Below are positions 41,275 to 58,072 of a stretch of 64,000 nucleotides of DNA, one piece after another; position 1 is the first letter of the stretch; every line of letters begins with the position of its first letter. This stretch comes from Candidatus Woesearchaeota archaeon (GTDB lineage Archaea; Nanobdellota; Nanobdellia; SCGC-AAA011-G17; PNOQ01). Position numbers and translations under genes: made by a program. The stretch lies in the NCBI GenBank assembly GCA_964344655.1, contig CAYFOF010000002.1, positions 56,768-120,767 of the forward strand. Reading direction: 5' to 3'. A model generated the notes under the pieces. It worked only from the letters and a program-made list of their open reading frames with translations, searched no databases and was not told the DNA's origin.

Positions 41275-42309
41275 TTACGGTAACTCTCCATGAGGAACTG
41301 CCTTTATATCAACAAGATTAGAATACAATCCAGGAGATTGACCACCCAAAACAGTCAAAAAGAATTTAAAATAAACTGTAGTTCCACTAGGTAAATTCTC
41401 TCCTATTAAATTATCCAAATAATTTGTAGTTAAAGTATGTTTTACTCCAGAAGGAACAGTACTATCCACAAAACTATAGCTAAATTTCTCATTACTCAAT
41501 AAAATACTATTTCCTCCAGAAATTAAATCTCCATTCGCTTTAGCATAAATATCTACATTCGTTCCAGTAGCATCTATTTGAGCATTATAATCTGTTACTC
41601 CACCACCATTATTCCCTTCAGCACCTTTATCAGTAGCAGGCAATTGAGTAACATCCCAAGCAATCCCATTAGCCATAATATTAGATAATGAAACTGAAAC
41701 TGAAACAGCATCTAATGTTGTAAAACTCCAAATCTCACCAGAAAATTCTCCAAAACCATCTTTTGCAACAATTTGCCAAAAATAAGTAGTTCCTGGACTT
41801 AATGAACCCAAATCAAATGTTTTTTCAGTTTGATCACTAGAAACTAAAGCTAAACTCTCTCCAAAATAAACATCATAAGTAAGTGTATCTTCATCCAAAT
41901 CACTAGCATCCCAACTTAAAGTTACTCCACTAATTGGTAAATCAATTTCTCCATTTAAAGGATTTAAATTAGTAACAACAGGAAGAATATTACATACTGG
42001 ATTCGGAATACAATTAACCATACATTGTGATGGAGCAGGACTAAGTTTTGGACTAAGCTGAGGAGAATCATCTACTCCATCTCCTTCAGTTGTAGGAATA
42101 TCTCTAACATCCGGAATCTCGCAAGTTCTTCCATATGTCATTTCATGCACTCCACAAATTCCTTCACCACACCCAATTTCTTCCCATTCTGTACACTCTC
42201 CACAGAAAACATCTTCTGGTGCTAGCTGAGGACCTTTTTGAGCTCCAAAGAAATATATTATTAAAAACAAAACTAAAAAAATAATAACACTATAATACGC
42301 TCTTTTCAT
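41275..42309 (-). CDS. secreted protein with fibronectin type III-like domain and shared C-terminal domain
   Basis: Signal peptide. FN3-like LSWDASDLDEDTLTYDVYFG...TTYFWQIVAKDGFGEFSGEIWSFTT. C-terminal TNYLDNLIGENLPSGTTVYFKFFLTVLGGQSPGLYSNLVDIKAV. Confidence 0.45.
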   Translation of the reverse strand: MKRAYYSVIIFLVLFLIIYFFGAQKGPQLAPEDVFCGECTEWEEIGCGEGICGVHEMTYGRTCEIPDVRDIPTTEGDGVDDSPQLSPKLSPAPSQCMVNCIPNPVCNILPVVTNLNPLNGEIDLPISGVTLSWDASDLDEDTLTYDVYFGESLALVSSDQTEKTFDLGSLSPGTTYFWQIVAKDGFGEFSGEIWSFTTLDAVSVSVSLSNIMANGIAWDVTQLPATDKGAEGNNGGGVTDYNAQIDATGTNVDIYAKANGDLISGGNSILLSNEKFSYSFVDSTVPSGVKHTLTTNYLDNLIGENLPSGTTVYFKFFLTVLGGQSPGLYSNLVDIKAVPHGELP

Positions 42310-47262: not shown

Positions 47263-47772
47263 TCATTTTTCCCTCATAACCCTGTGGGCCTTTCTATCAC
47301 AATATCTTCTAAAATTTTCTATATCTTTATCCATCATATTGAAAATAATTCCTGCAACATCATCTTGTGCTATATTATCCATACTTTCATAATTAGCTTT
47401 GAAATTATACAACATACCAATTGTTTCATCAGAAAAAAGTCCATAATTAATCTTTGGAAAATCATTTCTTGCTAATGCATCTTTAGACTTAACCATTTTT
47501 CCGTATGTAGTAGCATTCTCTAACAAAAATTCAATATATGGAGTAGTTTTAACATCTTCTTTTAGTTCAACAGAAACGGAATCTACAGATTCAACTAAAC
47601 TTTCAATTTCAGAATTATAATAACCATGATAATCAGAAGGAATTTCTCTATCTTCTTGAGAAAATAATCTTTTTAACCTACACAATTCTTCAATAGTAAG
47701 TTCCTCACTAGACTCTTCTGAAACAGCATCAAAATCTGGCCCGCCATCCCATCTTTTAGGTTCGCTTGCCAT
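47263..47772 (-). CDS. hypothetical acidic protein
   Basis: 169-aa ORF. Last gene of the putative TrmB operon. Confidence 0.3.
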   Translation of the reverse strand: MASEPKRWDGGPDFDAVSEESSEELTIEELCRLKRLFSQEDREIPSDYHGYYNSEIESLVESVDSVSVELKEDVKTTPYIEFLLENATTYGKMVKSKDALARNDFPKINYGLFSDETIGMLYNFKANYESMDNIAQDDVAGIIFNMMDKDIENFRRYCDRKAHRVMREK

Positions 47773-47778
47773 TTATAA

Positions 47779-48645
47779 TTACTCTCCTTTAACTTCAGTT
47801 ATTTTTCGAAGGTATTTTACTCCCTCATCAGATCCCGTCAATTCATTTATTCTAGTTAAATATTCTGTAGATAAACCTGCTAATTCTGAATCTACTGGTA
47901 ATTCTTCCAAAATTTTTGCGTCAAGACACTTCGTGTCTTGCCAAATGGGCACCCGCCCATTCGAGCCAGCAATAGACAAATAATCGCTCCCAGCATTCAA
48001 TCCGCCATTCCCATTACGATAAACCCTACGCAATCCATCTTGACCATTTGGTGTCCAAAGTTTAACTCCTTTCTTAGTACTTACTAAGCTTCCTGAAGTT
48101 TCATCATATTCAACTTTTCCATTTTTTTGTAAGAATGTAGCTTCTGTTGCTTGTACGTATTCTGAATCTTCAAATTGGAATATGTCTCCATTTCTAGAAA
48201 CATTTAATCCAGTTACTATTAATGGTATTTCTGTTGATATTTTTCCTAGAATTCCTAAAACTCTTTGTCTATGATCTTCATTAACTCCATCATTCGGATA
48301 TAATGCTACTCCACAAGAATCAAAGTAGTGTGAGCTTCCTTGAGGCAGTGCATCCCAATCTCTAATTAGCTCTGCTGGGGTGTGAACATTTATTCCTCTT
48401 TCTTTTAAGAAATTATAAGCGAAGCATACTAAAGGTACATTTGAATTTGTATTTTTTAATCCTGTTACTTCTTGATATTTAGCTAAAAGTTCTCTATTTA
48501 ATTCTTGATTTAAGTCTCCATTTAAGTGACCAACAACCATATTTCCTTGTTTATTTCCTTCAATTGTATTTTCCGGAGTTTTTCCCAAATACATATTAGG
48601 ACCTAATCCTTGAATCATTTTATTATTTCCCCCATGCTTGTTCAA
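47779..48645 (-). CDS. hypothetical protein
   Basis: 288-aa ORF whose start overlaps the TrmB-family gene by 23 nt. Confidence 0.35.
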   Translation of the reverse strand: MNKHGGNNKMIQGLGPNMYLGKTPENTIEGNKQGNMVVGHLNGDLNQELNRELLAKYQEVTGLKNTNSNVPLVCFAYNFLKERGINVHTPAELIRDWDALPQGSSHYFDSCGVALYPNDGVNEDHRQRVLGILGKISTEIPLIVTGLNVSRNGDIFQFEDSEYVQATEATFLQKNGKVEYDETSGSLVSTKKGVKLWTPNGQDGLRRVYRNGNGGLNAGSDYLSIAGSNGRVPIWQDTKCLDAKILEELPVDSELAGLSTEYLTRINELTGSDEGVKYLRKITEVKGE

Positions 48646-49414
48646 ATAATGAATTCAATGTACCAGCAAAAAATGGACTATTAATCCATACACCAATATC
48701 ATTTTTATCAGTAATTTTTTCATCATCTGTTAACATGAACATCAAATTACTACCATCAACCAAAATAAATCTTGAATCAATTCCTTCAATGTTTTTAATT
48801 GTAGCAATTCCTTTTAATTCATTAACAATAGTTTTTGAATCATCACTTAAAGGTGCAGCAATTTTAATTTTTACACCATTCTTAGATAAATTCTTAAACA
48901 TAAATTTCAAACTATCAACTTTTCTAATCAATCCTTTTTCTGTAGTTGAAATAATCACAGATTCTTTAGCATCTTTCAGAACAGTTTCCATATGATCATA
49001 TAAATTTCTTCTACCTTTTATTGAACCAGAAACAGTTGTTGGATCAACATGTTCTACTCCATTTTTGAACAATAAATCCAATTCACCAAAGAATTCTGTA
49101 TCTTTTAATTGTGAAATAGTCTTTACTTTTGTTTCTGCGTTAGTTAATACAGACTTCTTAACTCTTGAAATAACTTCTTTAGGTTCAACCGCTAAATATT
49201 TTATAGGTTTACCTAATTTCATTAATATAAATCCTCTCTTCTCAAGAGATTCTAAAACGTCATAACTTCTTGATCTTGGAACTCCGCTAATATCTGCCAA
49301 TTCACCAGCAGTAGCTATGCCTTTTGATAACAAAGCCATCCAGATCTTTGCTTCATACTCATTAAGATCGAAAGACGATCTCAACCTTTTTAAAAATGTT
49401 TCATTCATAATCAT
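48623..49414 (-). CDS. TrmB-family transcriptional regulator
   Basis: N-terminal winged HTH ATAGELADISGVPRSRSYDVLESLEKRGF plus a C-terminal TrmB-like domain. Confidence 0.7.
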   Translation of the reverse strand: MIMNETFLKRLRSSFDLNEYEAKIWMALLSKGIATAGELADISGVPRSRSYDVLESLEKRGFILMKLGKPIKYLAVEPKEVISRVKKSVLTNAETKVKTISQLKDTEFFGELDLLFKNGVEHVDPTTVSGSIKGRRNLYDHMETVLKDAKESVIISTTEKGLIRKVDSLKFMFKNLSKNGVKIKIAAPLSDDSKTIVNELKGIATIKNIEGIDSRFILVDGSNLMFMLTDDEKITDKNDIGVWINSPFFAGTLNSLFEQAWGK

Positions 49415-49534
49415 ATTTAATCACATATTTAGAACAAATCATCCATTTATAAACCTTTCTATATATTGCCATTCAAAGGTAGTAAAAAAATCACAATCAA
49501 AAACACTTAAAAAATACGTTACACTCACCCAGTT

Positions 49535-50839
49535 ATGAAGTATTATCTAACAATAGTAATAATTCTACTGATAATATCTACTGTTGCAGCAGATTCAGAA
49601 AGTACACAATTTGGATTAGATAGAAGAACTTCTGAAATAATTAAACCAATTAACATAACAAACACCACAATAAACATTACAGAACCAATAAATATAACAG
49701 ATAATATAACAGACTTAATAAACATAACCGATAATACTACAATAATCATAATTCCAATAAATTTAACAAATTTCACGGAGTTAAATATAACAAGAAACGA
49801 AACAATAAATATAACAATTAACGAAACAATAAATATAACAATTAACGAAACAATAAATCAAACAAACACTACAATAAAACCAGAAGAAATAATATTATCT
49901 CCACCAATCCAAGAAGATTTTACAACTTATTTTTACGCAGGAAATAGATTAATTGCAACAAAAAATAATGAGAATATAAAATACCACTATCAAGACCATT
50001 TAGGTTCAGATATAAATTCTAAATCTCTCCCATTTGGACAACCACTAGATATACAAAACAGATTTTCATTTTCTGGAAAAGAATTCGATTTAGGAGAATA
50101 TTATTTCGGAGCAAGATATTACGATCCAAACTTAGGAAGATTTACTTCCGTAGATCCAATTAAAACAGAACCACCCTATCAATATGTAAGAAATAACCCA
50201 TTAAGATTCATAGATCCAGATGGAAGAGAAACAAAAGAAAAATATCAAAACTTAATATTATTCTCAGAAGCAATGAAAGTCACTCAAACACCATTAATAT
50301 TAAATTTCCCCACACAACAAGACGTAGATAATTATAGAACAACAGTTGTTGATTCATTAATATCAACAAATCAAAAAAATATATTAATAGATTTAGAAAA
50401 CGGAATTCCAATTTCAATCCCTGGTTACGGAGAATCTACAAAACTTCCATTATTCGGAACAAACTCAATAAACACATTATTTCAAATGGAAGTAAGTAAA
50501 AATGGTCCAATAGAAAACGTTATATTTTTCATGCATAGTGCAACAAACACTCCAGGTAATATAGTTCTAGAAATGCCTGGAACCCTCCCAAGCACAAGCG
50601 AACCAAAAATAGAATTAACAAACAGTCTACTTTCTTTACCAGATGAATATCTTGCTCCAAATGGACAAATAATCTTTGCAATTTGTCACACAGACACTTG
50701 CATAAATGGACAAGCAATTGCAGATAGTTTAGGAGTTACAGTTTACGTCTCACCAAACGAAGTAGAATTTGTTGAAGGAATATCGCCACCACTAATTTAC
50801 GGTCAATTCAACGAATATAAACCAAAAAAAGAAGATTAA
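49535..50839 (+). CDS. secreted, heavily N-glycosylatable RHS/YD-core protein with unknown C-terminal domain; polymorphic-toxin-like
   Basis: Signal peptide. More than 15 N-x-T sequons in about 90 aa. YD-like NRLIATKNNENIKYHYQDHLGSDI. RHS core terminus ARYYDPNLGRFTSVDP...YVRNNPLRFIDPDGRE. About 210 aa of C-terminal domain of unknown function. Confidence 0.6.
   Translation: MKYYLTIVIILLIISTVAADSESTQFGLDRRTSEIIKPINITNTTINITEPINITDNITDLINITDNTTIIIIPINLTNFTELNITRNETINITINETINITINETINQTNTTIKPEEIILSPPIQEDFTTYFYAGNRLIATKNNENIKYHYQDHLGSDINSKSLPFGQPLDIQNRFSFSGKEFDLGEYYFGARYYDPNLGRFTSVDPIKTEPPYQYVRNNPLRFIDPDGRETKEKYQNLILFSEAMKVTQTPLILNFPTQQDVDNYRTTVVDSLISTNQKNILIDLENGIPISIPGYGESTKLPLFGTNSINTLFQMEVSKNGPIENVIFFMHSATNTPGNIVLEMPGTLPSTSEPKIELTNSLLSLPDEYLAPNGQIIFAICHTDTCINGQAIADSLGVTVYVSPNEVEFVEGISPPLIYGQFNEYKPKKED
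49797..49860 (+). repeat. 24-nt tandem repeat (about 2.7 copies) inside the coding sequence
   Basis: acgaaacaataaatataacaatta, about 2.7 copies, encodes repeats of NETINITI. The third copy diverges at its end, changing the last repeat to NETINQT. Confidence 0.7.
49925..50150. repeat. copy of the RHS-core coding segment (paired, inverted, with 26130-26355)
   Basis: See paired entry 26130-26355. Confidence 0.6.
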
Positions 50840-51270
50840 TTTCTAATATGCCTAGAAAACATATTTGGATCGCCATCTTGATCAAAATAGAAAAATAATC
50901 CATCGCCAAGAGTATATATTTCTCCATAATCTTCAACTAACTTTTCTGTAGTTGGATCATAAATTCCTAATCTCTCTAAATCACTTACGGAATTTGCTCT
51001 ATATATATCTCCATTAGCAAAATAATGATTAATAACTCCACTAGATTGGCCCTCAAAATGAGTATACAAACTATCTTTTTCAGCTTGTGAGATTGGAACT
51101 AATTGCGCATTAATAGAATCTTCTAAACAATTTCTAGTCGGAGAACATCCCATGTGACTAGAATATGCACTTAAAGCCATTATACTTCCTAGAAAAGCGC
51201 CAAGTACTCTATTCAAAGGTTGTCTTGCAAATTCTTTCCAACTTCCACTGTGAAATTGTTTATCTTCCAT
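50836..51270 (-). CDS. hypothetical protein
   Basis: 144-aa ORF convergent with the RHS-core gene. Confidence 0.3.
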   Translation of the reverse strand: MEDKQFHSGSWKEFARQPLNRVLGAFLGSIMALSAYSSHMGCSPTRNCLEDSINAQLVPISQAEKDSLYTHFEGQSSGVINHYFANGDIYRANSVSDLERLGIYDPTTEKLVEDYGEIYTLGDGLFFYFDQDGDPNMFSRHIRN

Positions 51271-51318: not shown

Positions 51319-52437
51319 TTACAACTTAGATAAGAATTTCTGAACTTCTTTTTTAGCTTTAACTCTTTTTTTCTGATGTTCAACCAAAAACTTTTGAAGC
51401 TTCTCAATAGTATATTTCTTCAATTCCCCAGTTAATAACTCTCCTTTCTTATAAGAATCATGAATTTCTTGTAATTTTTTATCATCTTCTTCTAATCCAT
51501 ATTTCAATAACTGAAAAGAAACATCAATATCCGGATTTCCACCTTTTTTTCTATGTTCTTCTAATGTTTTTTGACCACCAGAGAAAGCAAATTTCTTAAT
51601 TTTTTTAGCAGCAACTTCTGGAGAATCTGTTAAAGCAATATAAGAATTTTCATCAGAACTGCTCATCTTCCCACCCTTCAATCCAGGTAAAAACATATGA
51701 CATGTAGAACTCAAAGGCATAAATTTATGCCCTGGAAACTTATACGCAACATCTCTAGCTAATCTTAAATGTGGATCTTGATCAATTCCAACTGGAACAA
51801 TAACTGGCAAAGCTTTTCCTTCAAACTCTTTTAATTGAGGATGTAACATATCTGCTGCTTGCAATAAAGCAGAAGATAATTTAGCAGGAGAAATATCTCC
51901 ATAAATTGCTTTTACTTGGTTGAATGTTGTATGTCTTCCCAACATATTTGCTAAAGAATAATAAGCACTAGATTTTACACCATCTTTATCTCTTGAAGAT
52001 TGAAAATAAAAATCACATTTCTTTAAATCTAATCCCAAAGCAACATAATTAGTTAAATATTCTTCAATAGCAACTTTCTTTAATTCTTCCATATCTGGCA
52101 TTCTAGAATTATAAGCTTCAACATCAGCCACAGCAACATAAACTTTTGCTCCTAATTTTTGATACATAATAATTTGATCAGCAACAATTTTATGCCCAAA
52201 ATGAAATTTCCCACTAGGCATCAATCCAGTCATCATCACAAAGGGTTTTTTCTTTTCAATAGATTCATTTATCTTATCAAAATCCCTATGACAATAAATT
52301 ATTCCTCTCCTAAACAACAAAAAATCATTCAACTTCTTAGGAACTGTCTTAAAAGGTTTTAATCCAAATTCTTTTATTATTTTACTATAATTTATATCCC
52401 CTTTAATTTCCCAAGGAGTTACACTAGATTTAACCAT
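51319..52437 (-). CDS. trpS: tryptophan--tRNA ligase (archaeal/eukaryotic type)
   Basis: HIGH-like PSGKFHFGH and KMSKS-like GGKMSSS. The block VPVGIDQDPHLRLARDVA matches eukaryotic/archaeal TrpRS AIDQDPYFR. Confidence 0.75.
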   Translation of the reverse strand: MVKSSVTPWEIKGDINYSKIIKEFGLKPFKTVPKKLNDFLLFRRGIIYCHRDFDKINESIEKKKPFVMMTGLMPSGKFHFGHKIVADQIIMYQKLGAKVYVAVADVEAYNSRMPDMEELKKVAIEEYLTNYVALGLDLKKCDFYFQSSRDKDGVKSSAYYSLANMLGRHTTFNQVKAIYGDISPAKLSSALLQAADMLHPQLKEFEGKALPVIVPVGIDQDPHLRLARDVAYKFPGHKFMPLSSTCHMFLPGLKGGKMSSSDENSYIALTDSPEVAAKKIKKFAFSGGQKTLEEHRKKGGNPDIDVSFQLLKYGLEEDDKKLQEIHDSYKKGELLTGELKKYTIEKLQKFLVEHQKKRVKAKKEVQKFLSKL

Positions 52438-56170: not shown

Positions 56171-58072
56171 CTATACTAACCTTATAGTTTCCAAATTCTT
56201 AGGGGCCACAGTCTCCATTCTATAAGCTTTATGAACAGAACTAGCTAAATCCAAAACTTTACTTACTTCACCGTGAACCACGATCATTTTCTTAGGTCTT
56301 GGAGAAGTTCTTCCAACAAAATTCATTAATTGATTTCTATCTGAATGTCCAGTAAATCCATGAATAGAATAAATATCCATTTTAACTTTTACAGGCATTT
56401 GCTTACTTCCTTCCATAAACATAATTTCTTTCTCACCTTGTTGTAACCTTCTACCTAATGAGCCTTCACCTTGATAAGAAGTTAATACTAAACTATGTTT
56501 GTCACTCTCAGCTAAATTCTTAAAATACTCAACAGAAGCTCCACCAGTCATCATACCAGAAGTAGCCATAATAATACAAGGTCCATTCTCATCTAAAACT
56601 TGTTTCATTTCTTTTTGTGAACCCACATGTTTAAAAATATCTGACAAAAACGGATTTTCATTTTTGTGGAATATCGCTTGTTTTACTTTATTATTGAAAA
56701 AATTCGGATAAGCAGTATGAATAGCAGTAACATCCCAAACCATACCTTGAACAAAAACAGGTATTTTTGGTAATTTACCTTCTCTAATTGCTCTCTCAAC
56801 AATAACCATTATTTCTTGTGACCTACCAACCCCTAAAACTGGCAATAATACTTTTCCACCCCGTTCAACAGTCGTTTTGACAATATTCAACAAATAATCT
56901 TCAGATTCTTGTCTAGTTGCAGTAACATCATCTTTTCCACCATAAGTTCCTTCAATCATTAATGTCTCTAATCTAGGAAATTTAGTTACAGCAGGAGCTA
57001 ATAAATTTGAAACTTCATAATTCATATCACCAGTATACATAAAGTTATGCAACCCTTCACCAATATGGAAATGACATAATGAACTTCCTAAAGTATGTCC
57101 AGCATTATAAAACGTTAAACGTATATCTGGAGAAATATCTGAAACCTCTTCATAATCTAAAACAACAGTATGTTTAACCATTTCTTTAACATCAGCAGAA
57201 CCATACAACGCTGCCTTATTCTCTTTTTGTCCAATTGAAATCATATCTAAACATAACAAAGCTGCAGTATCTCTAGTTGGAGCAGTACAATAAACAGGAC
57301 CACGATAACCATATTTAAACAACAATGGAATTAAACCACAATGATCTAAATGCGCATGACTCAAAACAACAGCATCTAATTCTTCAATTTTTAATTCTGA
57401 AATATCCATGTAAGGATATTGATCTTGCCCTCTAGCAGCAACATTAATCCCACAATCCATTAAAATTTTAGATTCATCAGTTTGCAATAAAAATGAAGAT
57501 CTTCCAACCTGTCTTGAGGCACCCAAAAATGAAACTCTAGCATAATTTGTTTTTCCTTCTTTTCTTTTAGAACCATAAATTCTCTCGCCAATTTTATGTA
57601 AGAATTTCTTCCTATAATCATCATTCTCATACAAAACAGTTCTGATATTCTCAATTAATCTTGATCTTATAGAAGGAATTCTCTTAACCAATGGAACCCA
57701 ATAAACTTTAGATTTAATTTCTTTCAAAGTCTCTCCAGATTTCCCAATTGCAATTCCTGGTTTTTCAGCCTCAACAATAACTTGAGATCTTTGCGGATCA
57801 AATATAATATTTAACTGCCCAGCCTCTTCTGGAATGATTTTTCTAATTTCATCTTCAGCCTTTTCAACAGGCATAGGAATAGAAGGATCTGCTCTTAATT
57901 CAACCCTTTTCTTAATAGTAGAAACTATTTCTTTAATAATTCCTTTATTATCTAAAAAGAAATCTTTATTCTTCGTATACATTACAATATTTGCGCCCTC
58001 AAACGAGATATTAGTTACATCTGCATCTTTAGGCAACATATCTTTTACTTGTTCTATTATTTTTACAGCCAT
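56171..58072 (-). CDS. aCPSF1: beta-CASP/metallo-beta-lactamase ribonuclease with N-terminal KH domains
   Basis: HAHLDHCG motif and beta-CASP region. N-terminal KH domain with GIAIGKSG. The 633-aa length is typical of aCPSF1. Confidence 0.85.
   Translation of the reverse strand: MAVKIIEQVKDMLPKDADVTNISFEGANIVMYTKNKDFFLDNKGIIKEIVSTIKKRVELRADPSIPMPVEKAEDEIRKIIPEEAGQLNIIFDPQRSQVIVEAEKPGIAIGKSGETLKEIKSKVYWVPLVKRIPSIRSRLIENIRTVLYENDDYRKKFLHKIGERIYGSKRKEGKTNYARVSFLGASRQVGRSSFLLQTDESKILMDCGINVAARGQDQYPYMDISELKIEELDAVVLSHAHLDHCGLIPLLFKYGYRGPVYCTAPTRDTAALLCLDMISIGQKENKAALYGSADVKEMVKHTVVLDYEEVSDISPDIRLTFYNAGHTLGSSLCHFHIGEGLHNFMYTGDMNYEVSNLLAPAVTKFPRLETLMIEGTYGGKDDVTATRQESEDYLLNIVKTTVERGGKVLLPVLGVGRSQEIMVIVERAIREGKLPKIPVFVQGMVWDVTAIHTAYPNFFNNKVKQAIFHKNENPFLSDIFKHVGSQKEMKQVLDENGPCIIMATSGMMTGGASVEYFKNLAESDKHSLVLTSYQGEGSLGRRLQQGEKEIMFMEGSKQMPVKVKMDIYSIHGFTGHSDRNQLMNFVGRTSPRPKKMIVVHGEVSKVLDLASSVHKAYRMETVAPKNLETIRLV

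Follow-up and report, generated by a model that had tools for sequence, protein, structure and literature searches.

The locus described here poses the question of what is carried by an archaeal protein that joins an RHS repeat-associated core to a C-terminal region unclassified by sequence, and of which adjoining genes, if any, work with it. The locus lies in a window of 64,000 nucleotides, the whole stretch of DNA that was analysed (positions 56,768 to 120,767 of contig CAYFOF010000002.1, assembly GCA_964344655.1, Candidatus Woesearchaeota archaeon). The gene in question (49535–50839, plus strand) is an open reading frame (ORF) of 434 codons with an ATG start and a TAA stop; its product is called identically on an independent metagenome contig and is also entry P0001 of a protein library. 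On balance, we take this product to be a Sec-exported polymorphic toxin of a reduced RHS type (hereafter mini-RHS), which carries a caspase-like protease tip and is paired with an exported immunity protein or inhibitor, in an archaeon of the Woesearchaeota (DPANN). The parts of the protein are as follows.

49535–49591, plus strand: predicted signal peptide, residues 1–19 (MKYYLTIVIILLIISTVAA, followed by D), from its hydrophobic core and the V-A-A after it
49652–49873, plus strand: Ile/Thr/Asn-rich stalk, residues 40–113 (74 residues), with 17 N-x-T sequons
49904–50227, plus strand: RHS repeat-associated core, residues 124–231 (108 residues), from the TIGR03696 match, PDB matches and identity with copy A
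50228–50836, plus strand: C-terminal domain, residues 232–434 (203 residues, E232 to D434), putative clan CD (caspase/C80-like) cysteine peptidase, from an invariant His/Cys pair, AlphaFold models and Foldseek

The RHS core and its exchangeable tips

A first-pass annotation of the window had described the protein as copy B of a pair of RHS-core proteins with polymorphic C-termini, and both halves of that description hold. Residues 166–230 match the model TIGR03696 (Rhs_assc_core) with an E-value of 4.4e-19 and 68.8 bits, against a cut-off of 32.5, and the PDB sequences of YenC2, TccC3 and several Rhs proteins align to residues 177–231, with the alignments stopping at residues 230–232, the cleaved ends of those proteins themselves. 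The core contains the motifs RYYDP (residues 194–198), VDP (residues 206–208) and P222-LRFI-D227-P-D-G230-R231. The last of these is the PxxxxDPxGL cleavage motif except for the final Leu, which is replaced by Arg, and the first DP motif (V-D207-P208) lies 15 residues upstream. In Rhs1, a C-terminal plug of ~95 residues is the autoprotease, with the PxxxxDPxGL motif, a double-DP arrangement and a catalytic Asp in the second motif (PMC8636562). The archaeal core corresponds to this C-terminal 'plug', the aspartyl autoprotease part of RHS proteins, and its motifs predict that the mini-RHS protein may cleave itself. The array of YD repeats that makes up the shell is absent: RHS_repeat (PF05593) has no match at E ≤ 1 in the 434-residue protein, and before the cleavage motif the conservation with copy A spans only ~108 residues (124–231).

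25461–26477, minus strand: copy A, a mini-RHS protein of 338 residues with a signal peptide, the same core and a YkuD C-terminal domain (PF03734)

Copy A shares 78 of 112 residues (70%) with copy B in the core and nothing elsewhere; both proteins therefore keep just the RHS plug, with an N-terminus of their own before it and an exchangeable C-terminus after it. The tip of copy A is a YkuD domain of the L,D-transpeptidase type (PF03734, E = 5.2e-11). Because archaea have no peptidoglycan of their own, this domain may target bacteria. Further tips occur among the relatives of copy B. Two of the loci recovered for it (L009, 3777–4961, and L024, 1720–2931, both plus strand) have a second mini-RHS gene in tandem, just upstream of the one with the clan CD-like tip, and its product combines the same core with a third, unrelated Cys-rich C-terminal domain (…WLWGKCNNRVQPCGNAYCTDE…), evidence that these archaea use the core repeatedly, with several tips. 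The idea that such genes are orphan cassettes of a full-length RHS gene was rejected, as no full-length RHS gene is present in the 64 kb and each copy has its own signal peptide; the intact orthologues, at 46–63% identity, also contradict it. Copy A directly follows the cluster of genes for elongation factors EF-2 and EF-1α and ribosomal protein S10, and has no convergent small partner. Directly upstream of it, on the same strand, is a gene for a membrane protein of 131 residues with a weak FG-GAP-like match (26512–26907, minus strand).

The C-terminal domain

The earlier description of the C-terminal region as unclassified by sequence stands, whereas its length of 210 residues included the last residues of the core, and the domain proper has 203. 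Sequence and profile searches with it find no match in Pfam, NCBIfam or the PDB, and the domain alone returns no relatives from a word-indexed homologue search. An exhaustive HMMER search over 1.84 billion cluster representatives yields seven true members, to which a profile search adds four and locus searches a few more, giving about a dozen relatives in total (P0008, a repeat protein of 1406 residues, was rejected as a false positive). Every full-length member consists of a signal peptide, the RHS core and this C-terminal domain, and an archaeal origin is seen for all relatives whose source is named or whose gene context is readable.

Only five columns are invariant in the family, whose members share 20–46% pairwise identity, and two of them, in alignments of 7 and of 10 sequences, are His334 (50534–50536) and Cys384 (50684–50686). 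Each follows a hydrophobic block (VIFFM-H and IIFAI-C, respectively), and the two residues are 50 positions apart. The stretch FFMHSATNTPG, in which the first-pass annotation had seen a hint of a hydrolase, contains the invariant His334, which pairs with the invariant Cys384 in a caspase-like (clan CD) arrangement.

AlphaFold (AF2) models of two distant members were compared with the PDB by Foldseek. The models have mean predicted local distance difference test scores (pLDDT) of 80.5 and 83.1 and predicted template modelling scores (pTM) of 0.81 and 0.80. The His is placed at the end of a strand (domain residues 96–104), followed by a helix, and the Cys at the end of a second strand (domain residues 143–153). 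His before Cys, each at a strand end and 50 residues apart, is what we take to be the pattern of clan CD. Model 1 has ten strands and four helices, a count equal to that of the C-terminal domain of Tce1 (PMC13323088). With model 2, ranks 1–4 of the Foldseek search are TPR-CHAT (E = 6e-3), metacaspase-9, Tce1 and another TPR-CHAT, and the top 26 matches also include legumains, peptide asparaginyl ligases and the glycosylphosphatidylinositol (GPI) transamidase PIGK. The match of model 2 to Tce1 has template modelling (TM) scores of 0.41/0.50, a root-mean-square deviation of 4.6 Å over 154 columns and a probability of 0.98. Model 1 retrieves Tce1 (TM 0.39/0.43) and the cysteine protease domain (CPD) of TcdB (3PEE), amid Rossmann-like noise.

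Both Tce1 and Tce2 are His/Cys enzymes resembling the TcdB CPD, and the C115S substitution abolishes the toxicity of Tce2 (PMC13323088), while C-terminal 'Tox-Caspase' domains are a recognised class among polymorphic toxins (PMC3482391). From the invariant residues, the models and the clan CD matches, which are weak yet consistent, it is likely that the archaeal domain is a divergent clan CD cysteine peptidase, which would act as a protease on a protein target.

The convergent partner gene

50836–51270, minus strand: convergent partner gene, 144 residues, candidate immunity protein or inhibitor, from its conserved position, strand, size and export signal

The gene that converges on the toxin gene had been put forward as a possible immunity or partner gene, and the survey of related loci agrees. 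Every locus recovered has a small convergent ORF (106–176 residues), whose distance from the toxin stop ranges from −4 to +19 nt. The survey covers 13 gene versions (the window, L016, L002, L018, L021, L019, L005, L008, L009, L022, L024, L012 and L015), which occupy at least five unrelated gene neighbourhoods. Look-ups in the reverse direction, from the small-protein family, lead back to a mini-RHS protein with the same C-terminal domain in three of three cases (P0018, P0019 and P0022; four loci), at 212–220 bits. The first-pass annotation had also envisaged the opposite outcome, a common, non-enzymatic surface domain with neighbours that show no co-occurrence; what was found is a rare domain with a strictly recurring neighbour.

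The N-terminus of the window partner is a hydrophobic segment followed by a Cys (…ALSAYSSHMGC), as in an exported or lipoprotein-like product. All complete partners begin with a hydrophobic segment, mostly followed by a Cys in a lipobox-like setting (the N-terminus of the L015 partner is off the contig end); the partners are therefore predicted to be exported or lipid-anchored. Since the partner carries an export signal, the site at which the protease acts is probably outside the membrane.

Searches of Pfam, NCBIfam and the PDB with both small neighbours are empty. The partners form three sequence families, which HMMER cannot join to one another and which broadly track the subgroups of the C-terminal domain. 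The window partner is 48% identical to P0022 and 71% identical to P0016; when it is left out of training it is still the best non-training match among 1564 ORFs, at an E-value of 0.024. Direct kinship between the window partner (144 residues) and that of L016 (123 residues) was rejected (E = 2.2), and the mismatch is explained by two paralogues: L019 has both in tandem, the window keeps one and L016 the other.

Between relatives, the toxin is 63–69% identical and the partner 54–56%, against about 90% for the housekeeping neighbours. Such tight pairing and fast divergence are the expected behaviour of a toxin and its cognate inhibitor, and we infer an inhibitory role for the partner. The immunity genes of polymorphic toxins are normally downstream on the same strand. 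Here a same-strand downstream immunity gene is absent; in all loci the neighbour at this end runs on the opposite strand, yet it is strictly linked.

A palindrome, TTAA (50836–50839 in the window), supplies the stop codons of both toxin and partner, in L015 and L016 as well, and the convergent transcripts must therefore overlap at their 3′ ends. In the window, trpS is on the same strand as the partner gene and ends 48 nt upstream of it, and the partner may be expressed together with this housekeeping gene. The tryptophanyl-tRNA synthetase (TrpRS) of the window (51319–52437) is 89% identical to that of L019 (2830–3942) and only 45% identical to that of L016 (5754–6824). The divergent TrpRS of L016, together with its other partner paralogue, suggests a replacement event at the 3′ flank of the toxin gene.

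Predicted export signal and stalk

The N-terminus of the mini-RHS protein predicts cleavage of the signal peptide and export, and a comparable N-terminus is present in all full-length relatives. The stalk that follows is unusual in composition: each of its 17 Asn residues falls in an N-x-T sequon (17/17 sequons), whereas the other 321 residues in the count contain none. Shuffling of the stalk segment gives a mean of 4.4 sequons and a maximum of 11 in 2000 trials, against the 17 observed. On this pattern the stalk is presumed to be heavily N-glycosylated. Within it, a 24-bp tandem repeat (49782–49865) runs for 3.5 copies, its unit encoding INITINET. The orthologues vary in stalk length and in the number of sequons (10–27 per relative), which suggests expansion and contraction of the repeat.

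Proposed mechanism and alternatives

If these parts act together, the protein would be exported via its signal peptide, and the densely N-glycosylated stalk of 74 residues would keep it clear of the cell surface. The 108-residue RHS plug, without a YD-repeat cocoon, would be the constant module and would probably cut itself after PxxxxDPDG-R231. The tip of 203 residues, released or exposed in this way, would be a clan CD protease (closest to the C80/Tce type) that uses His334 and Cys384 and whose targets, proteins of a neighbouring or host cell, lie outside the cytoplasmic membrane. The producer would be protected at its own surface by the product of 50836–51270, anchored in the membrane or to lipid, which would bind the protease and block it.

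The same features could be read in other ways. A signal peptide and a glycosylated stalk suit cell-surface display, the partner is likewise exported, the gene stands among housekeeping genes outside any toxin island, and the host is a woesearchaeal metagenome-assembled genome (MAG), from a group proposed to live on other cells (PMC9723730). All of this would fit a surface protease or adhesin with which an episymbiont attaches to its host or feeds on it, remodelling the host S-layer or surface proteins rather than acting as an antagonistic toxin, with the partner as a regulator, chaperone or docking protein. We regard this as unlikely, though not negligibly so: a constant core with swappable tips, such as YkuD in copy A and a third type in L009, is a hallmark of polymorphic toxins, the toxin and its partner diverge much faster than the neighbouring genes, and the partner families shift along with the subgroups of the C-terminal domain. 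The domain might, instead, be a clan CD-type transpeptidase or self-processing module that acts on the protein itself or on the partner and not on foreign proteins, given that Foldseek retrieves PIGK, legumains, peptide asparaginyl ligases and the self-processing TcdB CPD and that the caspase-like domains of polymorphic toxins are mostly releasing peptidases (PMC3482391). Against this, the domain is the last in the protein and leaves no downstream cargo to release, a release motif is already present in the RHS core, and C-terminal-most caspase-like domains are read as toxins (PMC3482391), which makes self-processing quite improbable. Nor do we think it probable that the domain is a non-catalytic α/β module for binding or structure, with a structural or metal-binding His and Cys and a likeness to clan CD that reflects a generic three-layer α/β sandwich. 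The empty sequence-profile searches, the weak E-values of all Foldseek matches and the Rossmann-type dehydrogenases (TM about 0.3) at the top of the list for model 1 speak for it; however, two of only five invariant columns are a His and a Cys set as in clan CD (at strand ends, in that order, 50 residues apart), the independent model 2 retrieves five different clan CD families, and an enzyme that has to be restrained would more readily account for a dedicated exported partner.

Several observations weigh against the toxin–inhibitor reading that we prefer. As to the fold, none of the clan CD profiles of Pfam has a match in the family, even with a threshold of E ≤ 10 (Peptidase_C80, C14, C13 and CHAT were searched with all seven members, and the PDB profile search gave none either), no Foldseek match reaches an E-value of 1e-3 and the TM scores range from 0.25 to 0.5, the dehydrogenases outrank the peptidases with model 1, and a Gly follows the His in only some members. 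Self-cleavage may not occur, since the protein lacks the shell of YD repeats in which the RHS autoprotease is normally housed, and the P1 residue is Arg instead of Leu. As to the partner, it is convergent and not on the same strand, the similarity of the window partner to the others is weak once it is left out of training, and the partner paralogue kept in the window is not the one kept in the 63%-identical orthologue L016.

Comparison with bacterial toxins

Like the bacterial Rhs and YD-repeat toxins (Photorhabdus Rhs1, TcC/YenC2 and WapA), the archaeal protein has an RHS-associated core with the PxxxxDPxG signature, a sharp switch right after the core to an unrelated, exchangeable C-terminal domain, and a small dedicated partner gene at its 3′ end. 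Unlike them, it has no YD-repeat shell, only ~108 residues standing before the motif, and its locus, in an archaeal host, has no PAAR, VgrG or TcB context; export would use a plain signal peptide, with a sequon-rich stalk after it. DPxG is followed by Arg, Lys, Met or Asn in the archaeal family and by Leu in bacterial Rhs proteins, and the archaeal partner, encoded on the opposite strand, has an export signal of its own.

With the clan CD toxin domains (Tox-Caspase, the C80 CPD of TcdB and MARTX, and Tce1/Tce2 of the Pseudomonas type VI secretion system, T6SS), the C-terminal domain, on its models, would share an α/β sandwich of ~200 residues, and it has, like them, a His followed, ~50 residues later, by a Cys, each after a hydrophobic β-strand. 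Tce1 is the best structural match, and the TcdB CPD is also matched. As in the Tox-Caspase versions of toxins, the domain is the C-terminal-most one (PMC3482391). No obvious immunity gene lies near tce1 or tce2 (PMC13323088), whereas the archaeal loci always have the partner. The archaeal domain also differs in falling outside all sequence profiles, and neither a pocket for inositol hexakisphosphate (InsP6) nor a third catalytic residue could be made out in it.

The export signal of the partner has its counterpart in the T6SS pairs Tse1/Tsi1 and Tae/Tai, in which the protective partner also has an export or lipoprotein signal. In such bacterial periplasmic effector–immunity pairs, a protective protein with its own signal implies extracytoplasmic action of the toxin. 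The archaeal pair differs from them in its convergent orientation, in the archaeal envelope, and in being built on a putative protease rather than a cell-wall amidase. For copy A the closest parallel is the L,D-peptidase (YkuD-type) domain on an RHS scaffold that is listed among bacterial polymorphic toxins as Tox-LD-peptidase (PMC3482391). Copy A has the same kind of tip (E = 5e-11), and differs in that it is a mini-RHS protein, in an archaeon without peptidoglycan of its own, and has no evident partner gene.

Polymorphic toxins are reported to be rare in archaea (PMC3482391), and Woesearchaeota have been proposed to carry other weapons (PMC9723730). In the literature searched, nothing links RHS proteins to Woesearchaeota or DPANN archaea; an earlier description in the 2019 mBio survey of archaeal polymorphic toxins (Makarova et al.) is possible. 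A constant core, a variable toxin and a dedicated partner are well known from bacteria, and the locus is an extension of that scheme, not a new principle. The overall scheme corresponds to that of bacterial RHS toxins with a Tox-Caspase tip; the locus departs from it in the missing shell, in predicted Sec export with a presumed glycosylated stalk, in its DPANN host, in a clan-CD-like family that went unrecognised, and in a partner that is convergent and carries an export signal.

A wider proposal, which we advance tentatively and would not yet count as the probable one, is that DPANN archaea run a cell-surface toxin–immunity system of their own, in which an RHS plug without cocoon or injection machine serves as a minimal self-cleaving handle for swappable effectors, with a novel family of caspase-like proteases in copy B, YkuD in copy A and other domains elsewhere. 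If so, exported, lipid-anchored inhibitors encoded tail-to-tail would shield the surface of the producer, and this would be a mechanistically distinct form of archaeal polymorphic-toxin warfare, or of host manipulation, outside the membrane. Little is known of how DPANN archaea deal with their neighbours or hosts, and the locus offers a compact toxin–inhibitor pair from an uncultured woesearchaeal lineage and a clan-CD-like domain family that is recognised by no profile library. An RHS core without a shell is also relevant to the question of how small a self-cleaving unit of RHS proteins can be.

Genomic setting and the TrmB neighbour

The window is AT-rich (about 31% GC) and archaeal. Its genes include those for RNA polymerase subunits, EF-2, EF-1α, S10, archaeal phenylalanyl-tRNA synthetase (PheRS) and TrpRS, and a presenilin-type signal-peptide peptidase. 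The mini-RHS gene is surrounded by housekeeping genes, with no toxin island, and MAGs labelled Candidatus Woesearchaeota hold a 100%-identical fragment as well as the 63%-identical orthologue. Upstream, the mini-RHS gene shares a spacer with a divergent regulator gene.

48623–49414, minus strand: TrmB-family regulator (PF01978, E = 2.9e-19; PF11495, E = 3.9e-7)
49415–49534, no strand: spacer of 120 bp between trmB and the mini-RHS gene, with a conserved TTTATAAA box at 49446–49453 and an A-rich box about 30 nt before the ATG

The family assignment of the divergent gene had been made in the first-pass annotation and is supported by both Pfam matches. The spacer has equal length in the window, L016 and L002, with a mean column identity of 83%, and probably holds two archaeal promoters. 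The distance of about 30 nt between the TTTATAAA box and the start of trmB makes this box the probable promoter from which a leaderless trmB transcript is made. A scan for sigma-70 promoters and terminators was uninformative for this archaeal sequence.

That TrmB controls the toxin from this shared divergent promoter region of 120 bp, with the genes downstream of trmB taking part, is a further proposal, implied by the first-pass annotation. The kept arrangement speaks in its favour: the divergent order and the spacer with its TATA-like box are found in the window, L016, L002 and L018. We give the proposal little credence, however. TrmB stands next to the toxin in the window, L016, L002, L018 and L021, which form one syntenic clade whose housekeeping neighbours are kept too, and is not beside it in L005, L008, L009 and L012. 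TrmB is 92% identical in L016, against 63–69% for the toxin. Co-regulation by TrmB as a feature of the family was rejected, as TrmB is missing from the non-syntenic loci; local regulation of the mini-RHS gene by TrmB is possible. The annotation had further placed TrmB at the head of an operon with two proteins of unknown function that might co-vary with the C-terminal domain. The two same-strand ORFs (47779–48645 and 47263–47772) are present, but no evidence supports a functional link to the toxin or the co-variation, with TrmB adjacent in the syntenic clade only and the larger protein in no related locus.

That larger ORF (288 residues, 47779–48645, minus strand), which lies between trmB and the 169-residue gene and has no Pfam or NCBIfam match, is confined to the window and looks like a lineage-specific insertion. 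The 169-residue gene (47263–47772) and a 58-residue gene recur in L016 only. Farther away, a gene at 41275–42309 (minus strand) encodes a protein of 344 residues that may be another surface protein: its match to fibronectin type III, with 25.0 bits, is borderline and lies right at the cut-off of Pfam.

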